Shown in pieces: positions 28,140 through 31,211 of a stretch of 64,000 nucleotides of DNA. Position 1 is the stretch's first letter; each line of letters starts with the position of its first letter. The position numbers and the translations under genes are program-made. Under the pieces are notes generated by a model. It was not told where the DNA came from, did no database searches, and saw only the letters and a list, made by a program, of their open reading frames with translations. Source of the stretch: Nannocystis bainbridge (GTDB lineage Bacteria; Myxococcota_A; Polyangia; Nannocystales; Nannocystaceae); the NCBI RefSeq assembly GCF_028368995.1, contig NZ_JAQNDL010000001.1, forward strand, positions 1,632,001 through 1,696,000, in the 5' to 3' direction.

Positions 28140-30347
28140 TCACCCGGTCGTCTCGGCCGAGGCCGCGACGACCTGTGCGCGTGCGTACTCGAGCACCATT
28201 GCGTTGTCGGTGCGCAGCGCCCACTCCGCGGCGAGCACCGGAGTCGCCGCCCAGCGCTCCGCGGCGTGATCGACCAGGCGCGGCCATGTCGCCCCGCCCG
28301 CCCGCACGAAGCGCTCGACCAACTGCTCGAGCGCCGGCCGCCCGAAGCAGCCGAGGAACATCGCCAGGTCGACCGAGGGATCGGTCACCCGCGCCTCCGT
28401 CCAGTCGAGGATCCCGACCACGCTCCCGTCTGTCTCGAGGAGCATGTGCCCCGGGTGCAGGTCCCCGTGCACCAGCGCGACGTGCTGCGGCCACATCGTA
28501 TCGTCGGCGAGCCAGCGCTGCCAGCGCTGCCACACCGCCTCCGAGGGCTGCAGCGCCTCGCGGGTCGCGTCCATCGACCGCGACAGCGCCGCGCGCACCT
28601 CTGCGATCGTCGTCGTCGGCGCGCCCGCGCGGCTCGCCGTCTCCGGCGCGATCGACTGCAACGCCGCCAGCGCCCGCGCGAACGACTCGAGGAACGCCTC
28701 GCAGGGCGCCGCTGGATCGAGGATGTTCCACCGCGGGCCCTCCGGCGTCACCGTCACTGCCGGCGTACCGGAGAGCCGCGGGTACGCGATCACGTCGGGT
28801 GCGTGCACCCGCCAGTCGGGCGCGGCCACCGGCAGGCGCGGGCGCACCAGCCGGAGCACCCGCGCCTCCACGTAGGTCGACGCCGTCACCTCGAGGCGAC
28901 GCGGCGTCCGCACGATCCACGGCGTGCCCGCCTCGTCGCGCGCGTGCACGACCAGGAAATCGAGCCCCATGCGATCGAAGTCGGCGTCCTCGGCCTGCAG
29001 CTCGAGCCCGTGCCGGCGGACGACCGCCAGCAGCTCCGACGGGCTGGTGATCGGCCGCACCGTCGACAGCAGGCCGCGCCAGCGCTCGAGCGCAGCCGGC
29101 TGCGCGCGCACCCGAAGCAGCGTCCCGGCCTCGGTGTAATTCTCCGCGAGCACGCGGGCGTGCGCGCGCACCTCCCCGAGCAGATGCCCGTCCGTGAAGG
29201 GCACCTCGAGCACATCGTCGACCTGTGTCGCGTCGAACGCCTCGATCAGCGCCGCGCGCAGGCGTGCGACGTCCGCGGGGTCGTGCGCGCAGACCTGCAG
29301 CGCCGCCGGCAGCTCCTCGGCCAGCGCCGCGCGCGTCGCCGCGTCGACCCGGTCGATCTTGTTGAAGATCACCAGCGAGGGCACCGCCGCCGCGCCGATC
29401 GTCGCCAGCGCCTCGCGGGTCACCGCGAGCTGCGTGCGCCACTGCAGATCCGACGCATCGACGACGACGAGCAGGAGCCCCGCGTCGCGCGCCTCGGCGA
29501 GGGTCGCGTGGAACGACGCGACCAGCTCGTGCGGCAATTCGCGGATGAAGCCGACCGTGTCCGACACCAGGATCCGCGGCGCCGTCTCCGGCGAGAGCGC
29601 CCGCACCGTGGTGTCGAGGGTCGCGAAGAGCCGGTCCTCGACCAGCACTTCACTCCCGGTCAGCGCGCGCATCAGCGACGACTTGCCAGCGTTGGTGTAG
29701 CCGACCAGCGCCGCGCGAGGCTGATCCTTGCGGCGCGCCCGCTGCGTCTCCTCGGCGGCGCGCAGGCCCGCGAGCTCGCGGCGCAGCCCGGCGATCCGTT
29801 CACGGAGCTCTCGCTTCTTCAGGGTCACGTTGCTGTGACCGCGCTCGCCCCGGCCGCCGCCGCCGCCCTCGCGCCCGCCGAGCGACCTGTCCTCGCGGAC
29901 ACGCGGGAGCGCGTGCGTGAGCGCGGCGATCTCGACCTCGAGCTGCGCGACCCGGGTCCGCGCGTGTCGCTCGAAGATCCGGAGGATCACGCTCGCGCGG
30001 TCGATCACCTCGACGCCCGCGAGCGCCTCCTCGAGGGCGCGGAGCTGGACGGGGCTGCGCGAGTCGCTGACGACGAGGAGGAGCTGCTCCTCCTCGGCGT
30101 CACCGCGGACCTCGGCGACGCGCGCCGCGAGCTCCGCGAGCTTGCCCTCGCCGATCGACGGATCGGCGGTCCGGTGGCGCTGGATCACCGAGGCGACGAC
30201 GCGGATCCCGAGCTGGGCGAGCAGGTTCTCGAGCTCGCTCATGGCCGCCTGCAAGGACGCTTCGGTGTCGCCGGGGAACTGCCGGCCGAGCACGACGGCC
30301 CGCGGCGTGGGGCGCACGGTGGATGGATGCCTGGAATGTTTGGTCAT
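28140..30347 (-). CDS. hflX-mph: HflX GTPase fused to macrolide 2'-phosphotransferase (Mph)
   Basis: N-terminal ~430 aa: IDRASVILRIFERHART, GYTNAGKS, FATLDT, DTVGFI, NKID. C-terminal ~300 aa: RHGL, MGLDF, WIVRTPRR, WQRWL, HGDLHPGH, ILDWTEARVTDP. AGGAG SD. Confidence 0.9.
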   Translation of the reverse strand: MTKHSRHPSTVRPTPRAVVLGRQFPGDTEASLQAAMSELENLLAQLGIRVVASVIQRHRTADPSIGEGKLAELAARVAEVRGDAEEEQLLLVVSDSRSPVQLRALEEALAGVEVIDRASVILRIFERHARTRVAQLEVEIAALTHALPRVREDRSLGGREGGGGGRGERGHSNVTLKKRELRERIAGLRRELAGLRAAEETQRARRKDQPRAALVGYTNAGKSSLMRALTGSEVLVEDRLFATLDTTVRALSPETAPRILVSDTVGFIRELPHELVASFHATLAEARDAGLLLVVVDASDLQWRTQLAVTREALATIGAAAVPSLVIFNKIDRVDAATRAALAEELPAALQVCAHDPADVARLRAALIEAFDATQVDDVLEVPFTDGHLLGEVRAHARVLAENYTEAGTLLRVRAQPAALERWRGLLSTVRPITSPSELLAVVRRHGLELQAEDADFDRMGLDFLVVHARDEAGTPWIVRTPRRLEVTASTYVEARVLRLVRPRLPVAAPDWRVHAPDVIAYPRLSGTPAVTVTPEGPRWNILDPAAPCEAFLESFARALAALQSIAPETASRAGAPTTTIAEVRAALSRSMDATREALQPSEAVWQRWQRWLADDTMWPQHVALVHGDLHPGHMLLETDGSVVGILDWTEARVTDPSVDLAMFLGCFGRPALEQLVERFVRAGGATWPRLVDHAAERWAATPVLAAEWALRTDNAMVLEYARAQVVAASAETTG

Positions 30348-30524
30348 ACGAAGGACTCCTGCGCTCGCGGCCCGTAGGCCCGAGCGAGCTGGGAAGCCCG
30401 TGCGCGCGGCTCATGTGCCCGGCGCGGCGAGACGACGTCTCGACGCGACTGCTTCTTCCGGCGGCATGAGACGCCGCGCCCGGGCATTCCGTGGGACTGA
30501 AAGGACGGAGATGCGGGCACGACG

Positions 30525-30595
30525 CCGCAGCACTCGCACTCGCACCGTGCGCGCCGGATCTGCCGGAACACGCGGTCTGCGAGCGGGTACTGCGG
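30525..30595 (-). promoter_or_regulatory. Long leader hairpin (putative attenuator)
   Basis: On the minus strand ccgcagtac..ctcgca..accg pairs with cggt..tgcgag..gtgctgcgg, starting 3 nt after the leader ORF stop. Confidence 0.6.
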
Positions 30596-30598
30596 AGC

Positions 30599-30625
30599 TC
30601 AGCGCAGGCGGATGAAGAAAACCAT
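30599..30625 (-). CDS. Putative macrolide-sensing leader peptide MVFFIRLR
   Basis: ATG GTT TTC TTC ATC CGC CTG CGC TGA about 250 nt upstream of hflX-mph; ends in the RLR arrest motif. Confidence 0.7.
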   Translation of the reverse strand: MVFFIRLR

Positions 30626-30634
30626 GTCGCGGCC

Positions 30635-30664
30635 AGAATGCCACCACTCGCCCCCGCCGCGCAA
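30635..30664 (-). promoter_or_regulatory. sigma70-like promoter for the leader/hflX-mph transcript
   Basis: TTGCGC-18nt-CATTCT with TGn extension, 9 nt before the leader ATG. Confidence 0.5.
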
Positions 30665-30743
30665 GCGCCTTGTGTCGTCCCCCTGTCCTTCGCGGCGAAA
30701 CACCGCGAACGCGCGGGCGGCCAGCGGGCCGAAGCAGAGAGCG

Positions 30744-31211
30744 TCACTCGATGTCGACTCGCAGGATCGTCGCCTGGCCGTCGCGCTCGATGGCGAAGCG
30801 GCTGGTGCCCGCGCTCCGCAGGTGCTCGAAGGCCGCCTCGACGTCGGCGACGTCGACCACGGGGGCGTCATCGACCGCCGTGAACAGGTCGCCGTTCTTG
30901 AGGCCGACGAGCCCTGGCAGGCTGCCCGCGCGCAGGCCGTAGACGAAGACGCCGCGAGGGACGCCGTCGTCGAGGAAGGGGATCAGCCGGGCCTGCTTTC
31001 GCACGGGCAGCGCGTTGACGGCGAGCGTGTCGACGAATCGTTGATCGAGGGTGCACCGGACGTCGCGGCAGCGCGCGAGCAGTGAGACATCGCCCATCTG
31101 GGCGGCGGCGTCAGCGGACGGATCGGCGCCGGAGATGAGGAAGAACAGCACGCCGGCGCAGGAGAGGCCGGCGCAGAACGAACCGAGAGCGGAGCGGAAG
31201 GAATTGCCCAT
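30744..31211 (-). CDS. Small GspC-type PDZ domain protein with N-terminal TM/signal
   Basis: ARLIPFLDDGVPRGVFVYGLRAGSLPGLVGLKNGDLFTAVD...IERDGQ. Confidence 0.75.
   Translation of the reverse strand: MGNSFRSALGSFCAGLSCAGVLFFLISGADPSADAAAQMGDVSLLARCRDVRCTLDQRFVDTLAVNALPVRKQARLIPFLDDGVPRGVFVYGLRAGSLPGLVGLKNGDLFTAVDDAPVVDVADVEAAFEHLRSAGTSRFAIERDGQATILRVDIE

Follow-up and report, generated by a model that had tools for sequence, protein, structure and literature searches.

A conserved R-L-R-stop leader as a probable macrolide sensor upstream of hflX-mph in Nannocystis bainbridge

How might a bacterium make the expression of a resistance-type gene depend on ribosomes that already carry the drug? 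This question is raised by the DNA upstream of hflX-mph in Nannocystis bainbridge, a gene in which the GTPase HflX is fused to a domain related to the macrolide 2'-phosphotransferases (Mph). The DNA analysed (assembly GCF_028368995.1, contig NZ_JAQNDL010000001.1) is a stretch of 64 kb, here termed the window, and coordinates are positions in this window unless stated otherwise. A preliminary description of the same DNA had proposed that a mini-gene for the peptide MVFFIRLR, ending in an R-L-R motif, is a macrolide-sensing, near-leaderless leader of hflX-mph, and that a ribosome stalled upon it switches the gene on. The first part of that proposal is strongly supported by conservation of the motif, at 17/18 loci of the fusion and 5/5 loci of a stand-alone mph gene, whilst the switch as it was drawn did not survive analysis. 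From comparison of the sequences it is considered probable, at roughly 0.78, that the leader makes hflX-mph expression depend on macrolide- or ketolide-bound ribosomes.

The promoter-like motif TTGCGC-18-CATTCT, the 9 nucleotides (nt) behind it and the short open reading frame (ORF) without a Shine–Dalgarno sequence (SD) were all found where they had been described, and are arranged as follows relative to the gene:

30664-30659, minus strand: -35-like hexamer TTGCGC, inside the conserved GGGGCTTGCGCG
30640-30635, minus strand: -10-like hexamer CATTCT, after an 18-nt spacer from TTGCGC (CATCCT in one orthologue)
30625-30599, minus strand: leader ORF of 8 codons, ATG GTT TTC TTC ATC CGC CTG CGC TGA, encoding MVFFIRLR*
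30610-30608, 30607-30605, 30604-30602 and 30601-30599, minus strand: its codons Arg6, Leu7, Arg8 and the stop TGA
30347-28140, minus strand: hflX-mph fusion gene, 735 amino acids (aa)

The leader ORF, hereafter the upstream ORF (uORF), thus lies on the same strand as, and upstream of, a gene of macrolide-resistance type; it starts 278 nt before the hflX-mph ATG (30347), and 251 nt separate its stop codon from that ATG. The 9 nt between CATTCT and the uORF ATG, GGCCGCGAC, contain no SD, and the corresponding distance is 9-10 nt across the orthologues of the genus. When the six orthologous loci were aligned, conservation was found to set in exactly at CTTGCGCG, the DNA upstream of 30665 not being conserved. 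The heptamer CTTGCGC also precedes the leader of a stand-alone mph paralogue, and -10-like hexamers stand 6-7 nt before the uORFs with a GTG start at three distant loci (TATCTC at L133, CATGGT at L135 and CATCCT at L132). The uORFs of the other loci likewise lack an SD, with GGGTGA at L127 as a possible exception, and the main genes all have strong ones. The spacing of the -10-like hexamers together with the absence of an SD fits a start codon that is at, or nearly at, the 5' end of the transcript. The uORF frame is mechanically open back to 30871 (a 90-codon ORF, 30871-30599), which is an artefact of GC-rich DNA.

Conservation of the leader peptide

Fusion loci were gathered by protein similarity alone, which yielded 18 loci at 45-90% protein identity from eight genus-level lineages of Myxococcota. 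The fusion gene is present in 6 of 11 genomes of the genus, including N. bainbridge, the other five genomes being fragmented assemblies that are 64-88% complete; the orthologues in the five sister genomes are 88-90% identical. The more distant fusions were obtained from a sample of the phylum (8 of 400 genomes, all in family f30), from 400 genomes of the class (two), from one further member of f30 and from one metagenome contig (L135). A genome scan with the full-length fusion alignment, in which the GTPase motifs dominated, returned plain HflX only and no fusion, and a metagenome scan with a bait taken from the conserved core of the leader gave no matches.

Conservation of an RLR uORF upstream of homologues had been suggested as a check on the proposed leader, and a uORF ending in R-L-R-stop was found at 17 of the 18 fusion loci and in seven of the eight lineages. 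All six orthologues of the genus keep the ATG, exactly eight codons, the residues F-I-R-L-R and the TGA stop (M-x-x-F-I-R-L-R*), with codons 2 and 3 varying freely and no insertions or deletions; the peptides are MVFFIRLR, MAMFIRLR, MFAFIRLR (three times) and MVAFIRLR, and Ile is encoded by ATC at four of the loci and by ATT at the other two. At the distant loci, where the fusion proteins are 45-61% identical, the uORFs read as follows:

L125: MWTLLYARLR*
L126: MRLFYYIRLR*
L127: MRKFCFYIRLR*
L128: M(TTM)IDCFHIRLR*
L129: ...IDSFYIRLR*
L130 and L131: ...IDLFHIRLR*
L132: (M)LKSLRLR*, GTG start, 8 codons
L133: (M)DILFYVRLR*, GTG start
L134: MWISHYIRLR*
L135: (M)LNSVRLR*, GTG start, 8 codons

Four of these (L128-L131) share the pattern M(TTM)ID[CSL]F[HY]IRLR*. 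The uORF is 8-13 codons long with a fixed C-terminus, an in-frame start codon always being found 8-13 codons upstream with no intervening stop. Across the lineages Arg6 is encoded by CGC, CGA or CGT, Leu7 by CTG, TTG, CTT or TTA and Arg8 by CGC or CGT, and the stop is TGA, TAA or TAG. Because the nucleotides differ between lineages while the R-L-R-stop end is constant, the comparison indicates selection on the translated peptide, over and above any on the RNA. Distant Myxococcota thus have in common this R-L-R-stop end, its spacing of 200-400 nt from the resistance-type gene, and a hairpin that follows the stop immediately.

A second leader, MFAFIRLR*, is encoded in the same genome at C5:58141-58167 (minus strand; L002:2640-2666). 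Here too the CTTGCGCG motif stands in front, and downstream lies the stand-alone mph paralogue, whose product shares 62% identity with the kinase half of the fusion. A DNA search of the genome with the fusion leader retrieved only that leader itself, the mph leader having emerged through a peptide scan. The orthologues of the mph leader in four sister genomes are again of eight codons and read MVASIRFR* (three) and MVASVRLR* (one), with TCC or TCG for Ser and CGC or CGT for Arg8. An R-x-R-stop leader, with R-L-R or R-F-R, therefore precedes the stand-alone mph in 5/5 genomes that possess this gene, and in all 22 uORF-bearing leaders (17 of fusions and five of mph) the stop codon follows R-x-R directly.

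Such ORFs are rare in the genome at large. The uORF is the only RLR-stop ORF of at most 15 codons on either strand of the window, and the 11-Mb genome holds 93 of them in 22,097 kb-strands, or 0.0042 per kb-strand, from which about 0.002 would be expected by chance, as a matter of arithmetic, in a 400-nt upstream region. Only four of the 93 end in [FYHWL][IVAL]RLR, and two of these four are the fusion and mph leaders; a third RLR-stop ORF, C1:261636-261677, was rejected as a leader, having no gene-like frame downstream. In the five sister genomes (12-13 Mb) the pattern ATG-N12-CGCYTSCGYTGAGC matches nine times, at the five fusion leaders and the four mph leaders, and its reversed control matches nowhere. 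Since all nine matches precede fusions or mph genes, the leader travels with the kinase domain and is therefore tied to macrolides more than to HflX. With an RLR-stop mini-gene retained at nearly all of the related loci, a role in drug sensing like that of the leaders of erm, mef and msr genes is very probable.

Relation to known +x+ leaders

By its sequence, the element belongs to the known class of +x+ leader peptides. The motif has been linked structurally to macrolides and ketolides, and structures of ErmDL have shown a ribosome arrested on Arg6-Leu7-Arg8, its P site occupied by Leu7 and its A site by Arg8 (PMC8298421). The closest format is that of Mef(E)L/MefAL (MTASMRLR) and Msr(A)L (MTASMRLK) of streptococci and staphylococci, which also consist of eight codons with RL[RK] at positions 6-8 and an immediate stop, and for the ErmDL type MTHSMRLR has been described as the minimal inducing peptide (PMC4335068). 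As here, a leader of about 300 nt with several stem-loops intervenes before the macrolide resistance gene; in mef(E)/mel it is a 327-nt, multi-hairpin leader that acts by transcription attenuation and mRNA protection (PMC4335068). The differences are that in Mef(E)L and Msr(A)L the uORF is preceded by a consensus SD, AGGAGG, and the leader contains a Rho-independent terminator, neither of which was found for hflX-mph, that residues 2-5 are TASM rather than x-x-F-I, and that the RNA scaffold is unrelated. In addition, those leaders serve an efflux pump or an ABC-F protein in Firmicutes, whereas the present ones serve a kinase and an HflX-kinase fusion in Myxococcota.

ErmDL/ErmKL (MTHSMRLRFPTLNQ) likewise carries RLR at positions 6-8 but runs on for six more codons, in contrast to the direct stop of all 22 leaders described here. 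A second point of comparison is rli80, the leader of Listeria hflXr (lmo0762), in which a small ORF of 14 codons with RLR also controls a resistance GTPase of the HflX type, through a terminator/antiterminator mechanism of transcription attenuation that is induced by lincomycin as well as by erythromycin (PMC6310831). Neither ErmDL nor rli80 needs a stop directly after R-x-R. The Listeria leader is low in GC, has an intrinsic terminator and antiterminator and shows no relation to the present one by sequence or in Rfam; here, moreover, an Mph-like kinase is joined to HflX, and a stand-alone mph is served by a leader of the same type as well. MsrDL, a further member of the class, arrests the ribosome at the stop codon itself and also works by transcription attenuation (PMC10314930). 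The stop that directly follows R-x-R in the present leaders suggests either that the position of the ribosome relative to the hairpin behind it matters, or that the arrest involves termination. No leader peptide of an mph gene of its own was found in literature searches; one review names leader peptides and mph together, in staphylococci.

Three features make the element notable: it is broadly conserved, it precedes a kinase as well as an HflX-kinase fusion, and it does without an SD and a recognisable terminator in a very GC-rich leader. If the reading of it as a sensor of macrolide- or ketolide-bound ribosomes is right, the logic of RLR leaders would extend from resistance genes of Firmicutes and Actinobacteria to Gram-negative soil predators and to mph genes. 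The strict R-x-R-stop and the SD-less start would offer a compact natural system in which to ask whether +x+ arrest acts at, or next to, termination, and also how a very GC-rich leader that lacks a canonical terminator senses a ribosome stalled at its 5' end.

Transmission of a stall

Whilst the drug-sensing part of the leader is well supported by the comparisons above, the candidates for the transducer are several: RNA refolding that aids initiation, attenuation that is Rho-dependent or otherwise non-canonical, and a shielding of the 5' end. The structure of the leader was modelled as a consensus fold with covariation from the six close orthologues, with 200 shuffles for the first hairpin (H1) and 500 for covariation, and comprises these elements:

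30598-30522, minus strand: hairpin H1, starting 1 nt after the uORF stop
30524-30472, minus strand: hairpin H2 (30524-30505 with 30492-30472), 19 pairs, 100% of cells paired
30510-30499, minus strand: pyrimidine tract ctccgtcctttc, in the 5' arm and loop of H2
30470-30452, minus strand: segment 2, CUCAUGCCGCCGGAAGAAG, the predicted partner of uORF RNA 30617-30598 (helix P0)
30446-30424, minus strand: small hairpin H3, 9 pairs, 94% of cells paired
30423-30400, minus strand: segment 3, CCGGGCACAUGAGCCGCGCGCA, the alternative partner of segment 2 in the consensus fold
30399-30393, minus strand: anti-SD GGGCUUC, pairing with 30359-30353, 7/7 pairs invariant in the six sequences
30389-30363, minus strand: hairpin H4, enclosed by the SD helix
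30362-30353, minus strand: SD region GCAGGAGUCC of hflX-mph, with AGGAG at 30360-30356

The hairpin behind the uORF stop, which the preliminary description had placed at 30595-30525, was confirmed with slightly wider limits; its folding energy of -48.9 kcal/mol compares with -35.7 +/- 3.6 in the shuffles, none of which is as good (z -3.7), and of its 29 pairs in the six-orthologue fold 19 are invariant, five vary on one side and none on both. The leader as a whole also folds better than its shuffles (z -3.6). The 3' arm of H2, ACGGAAUGCCCGGGCGCG, is purine-rich and forms the decoy-SD side, and a hairpin homologous to H2, with a pyrimidine-rich loop, is present at L132, L133 and L135. Segment 2 is complementary to segment 3 in addition to the uORF. 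A second small frame of 18 codons lies within the leader (30467-30411, minus strand, ATG at 30467, MPPEEAVASRRRLAAPGT*) and is open in all six orthologues; it was rejected as a peptide gene and probably encodes no peptide, because its variable codons alter the amino acids and it has no SD.

By analogy with ErmDL and Mef(E)L, and because there is no SD, transcription would be expected to start at the uORF ATG or a few nt before it. Without drug the ribosome would complete the eight codons and depart; with drug in the exit tunnel it would halt either on the motif, Leu7 occupying the P site and Arg8 the A site, or at the stop codon that comes next, and remain on the first ~35-40 nt of the mRNA. 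The uORF RNA that it covers is modelled as one strand of the long-range helix of 30617-30598 with 30470-30452, so that occupation by the ribosome might free the segment 30470-30452 and let the leader refold. The likely output would be better initiation at the SD masked by pairing of 30399-30393 with 30359-30353, possibly because the anti-SD changes over to the purine-rich arm of H2. Nearly as likely as such unmasking is an escape from premature termination, or a 5' end shielded from decay.

Some features of the RNA point to a coupling of this kind. P0, which is predicted in minimum free energy (MFE) folds, has 16 pairs in the comparison of the six sequences, one of which (columns 61:214) is compensatory, being C-G in four sequences and U-A in two: a synonymous change from ATC to ATT in the uORF is matched by a change from G to A in its partner. 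In family f30 the uORF sequence TC[C/T]ACATC has as its partner GATGT[G/A]GA, an island of conservation within a stretch that otherwise varies, and where the uORF changes from CAC to TAC the island changes from G to A. In the mph leader the segment that pairs with the uORF directly adjoins the anti-SD, and the SD helix of that leader has two pairs changed on both sides. Both families of leader in the genus show complementarity between the anti-SD region and the purine-rich 3' arm of H2, and when the uORF is blocked in models of the mph leaders the anti-SD shifts from the SD to the decoy in 2/5, with probabilities rising from 0 to 0.86 and from 0 to 0.67.

The switch that had originally been envisaged was a different one, and the results do not support it. 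The pyrimidine tract ctccgtcctttc was to pair with the AGGAG of the SD; a CUCC:GGAG pairing is possible on paper, yet no fold predicts it, the tract sits in the stem and loop of H2, and it fails as an anti-SD because its CTCC reads TTCC in 5/6 orthologues. The folds instead give GGGCUUC (30399-30393) as the partner of the SD. Nor would a stalled ribosome cover much of the 5' arm of H1, for a ribosome at codons 7-8 reaches, by arithmetic, only ~3-9 nt into this 33-nt arm. The ermC-type attenuator likewise combines a leader peptide with an SD held in a helix. In ermC, the ribosome stalls within segment 1 of the 1:2 hairpin; here its footprint hardly extends into H1, and in models the SD stays closed when the uORF is masked.

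The latter result, obtained by folding with and without the ribosome footprint as had been proposed, is one of several that weigh against dependence of hflX-mph on a stalled ribosome, or against this route to it. When the uORF and 5 nt are blocked the SD is as closed as when they are not (opening costs of 5.4 versus 4.8 kcal/mol here, and 10-12 in the orthologues), and in nine distant leaders blocking the uORF changes the cost by 0-5 kcal/mol. The cost of opening the SD here, 5.0-5.4 kcal/mol in the models and 5.0 in the -150..+30 context, ranks at the 59th percentile when set against 250 strong-SD genes drawn at random from this genome; the orthologues lie at the 86-90th percentile in four cases and at the 59th in L012. 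Masking of the SD was therefore discarded as evidence for a switch, being ordinary for the genome by percentile among these genes. In 3/5 mph leaders blocking the uORF changes little, and the probability that the SD of the mph leaders is unpaired rises by only 0.05-0.10. The duplex energy of P0 is no better than 8% of random 24-mers, the best partners of the uORF by this measure being at ~30430 and 30391 rather than at 30470, and covariation over the whole structure is weak, with 38/500 shuffles attaining its score in an alignment of just six close sequences. An extended helix, in which the 3' arm of H2 and segment 2 pair with segment 3 and the anti-SD, reaches -43 to -46 kcal/mol and was rejected as unpopulated in the ensembles: the structure is 1.6-10 kcal/mol above the blocked MFE, and its probability is at most 0.09 in truncated transcripts.

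On the side of transcription, a generic scan with the sigma-70 consensus called no promoter, TTGCGC-18-CATTCT included, a scan for intrinsic terminators found no terminator-like site in the leader of the window, and 11 other leaders contain no canonical terminator, that is, no local hairpin followed by a U-run. The second half of the fusion (aa 435-727) matches Mph families at ~200-213 bits, when the curated cut-offs are 500-650. Among the 18 fusion loci, L124 (family f30, genus g102) is the only one without an RLR uORF. Its leader is short, ~130 nt, and stands behind a good sigma-70-like promoter, TTGACG-17-TAATTC; expression there may be constitutive or differently controlled. The RNA runs searched held none of N. 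bainbridge and only metagenome contigs of relatives that are ~92% alike. Three RNA libraries of one root-metagenome study gave single, low-depth contigs on 30314-30594, and one soil run, probably of DNA, extends over the leader and into the gene, part of which it covers, the leader contigs lying overall within 30314-30616. That the RNA runs do not cover the gene is no evidence of attenuation, because the contigs show neither ends nor levels and carry-over of DNA is possible.

It can tentatively be proposed, as an idea we would not rate as likely, that the leader is the first example of an old myxobacterial drug sensor found across the phylum: a leaderless R-x-R-stop mini-gene whose own RNA is a strand of the sensor helix, read out by a terminator-less exchange between decoy-SD and anti-SD, and serving both a macrolide kinase and a fusion of ribosome-splitting GTPase and kinase. 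If so, a single fused protein would both free the stalled ribosome and inactivate the drug, and the expression platform would be distinct from the attenuators of erm, mef, msr and hflXr.

A possible alternative, held with comparable reserve, keeps the same sensor and gives it an output in transcription or RNA stability, the stalled ribosome preventing either a stop within the leader, at a Rho-dependent or otherwise non-canonical terminator, or decay from the 5' end. This would agree with the equilibrium folds, in which uORF and SD are not coupled, and with the ordinary masking of the SD. The loop of H2 is C-rich, G-poor and conserved in L132, L133 and L135, and we take it to resemble a Rho loading site. 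The distal partner of the uORF is followed directly by U6 in L127 and by U4 in L128, L130 and L131, but L129 lacks the U-run that its relatives carry, and 4 of the 11 other leaders have no U-run of four or more at all. The terminator scans already described, of the window's leader and of the 11 others, also tell against this output, whilst the closest characterised relatives, Mef(E)L (PMC4335068), hflXr (PMC6310831) and MsrDL (PMC10314930), do work in this way.

Alternative signals and the genomic setting

Less probable than either of these outputs is that the uORF is regulatory but answers to another signal, be it other drugs that bind the tunnel or the PTC (lincosamides, streptogramins, pleuromutilins) or general translation stress. 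The RLR leader of Listeria hflXr does respond to lincomycin too (PMC6310831), the HflX half of the fusion is not specific to macrolides, and the Mph half falls under all curated Mph cut-offs. Against this stands the identity of the motif that has been kept, which is exactly the +x+ (R-L-R or R-F-R) that the structural work cited above ties to macrolides and ketolides (PMC8298421). Within the genus, furthermore, the leader occurs only before genes with an Mph-like domain (9/9 pattern matches), and the only two leader-like matches of the genome scan precede the fusion and the mph paralogue, rather than the hflX paralogues that lie elsewhere in the same genome and have no leader-like match.

It is very unlikely that the leader is an untranslated, structured regulatory RNA with the open frame as a by-product of a conserved helix strand. 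The 3' half of the uORF is indeed conserved in nucleotide sequence within the genus and predicted to pair with distal segments, and the leader folds better than its shuffles (z -3.6), but R-L-R-stop stays constant across clades even though these use three different codons for Arg, four for Leu and every one of the three stops, and an in-frame start is always at hand. Rfam 15 gave no match at gathering score, the best hits being 12-25 bits against thresholds of 37-90 and all to unrelated families. A chance ORF without function, of the kind that the long mechanical ORFs of this DNA (and the frame open to 30871) might bring to mind, is already contradicted by the occurrence of the motif at 17/18 fusion and 5/5 mph loci over a background of 0.0042 per kb-strand.

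If it is a sensor of drug-bound ribosomes, the leader would constitute independent, regulatory evidence that the HflX-Mph fusions of Myxococcota act against macrolide-type ribosome inhibitors. Residues 18-369 of the fusion match GTPase HflX (TIGR03156, E 8e-91), and the Mph-like half is clearly related by sequence to macrolide 2'-phosphotransferases, yet below the cut-offs of all named families. The fusion is widespread in this phylum: an architecture of HflX plus an APH-family domain, of 717-766 aa, was found in 69 of the best 120 listed protein clusters, in Myxococcota, and in the databases fusion proteins are named just 'GTPase HflX', for example in Chondromyces, Sandaracinus and Lujinxingia. 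Full-text literature searches found no paper on an HflX-Mph fusion or on the mph genes of Sorangium.

The neighbouring genes are not resistance-like and encode a ferredoxin-domain protein, an amidohydrolase and a protein of 155 aa without a family. Mean pairwise nucleotide identity over the six loci, from six species-level genomes, is 0.91 for the leader and 0.93 for the gene, the two being equally well conserved, and both flanks are unrelated (0.37-0.42). The unit of leader and gene, 28140-30665 by comparison with L009-L013, has the promoter motif and the end of the gene as its boundaries, and looks like a cassette that has been independently placed or moved.

The 155-aa protein is encoded by the upstream neighbour at 30744-31211 (minus strand); it has a hydrophobic N-terminal stretch and no Pfam family, and the mechanical ORF of 804 codons that encloses it is mostly an Arg-rich, wrong-frame artefact. 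A stand-alone hflX paralogue, C3:1235541-1236941, aligns with the query as two separate pieces, aa 10-75 and aa 80-429, that are ~150 nt apart. The same two-piece match recurs in several genomes of the genus and beyond, and may reflect an insertion or a change of frame in the N-terminal domain.

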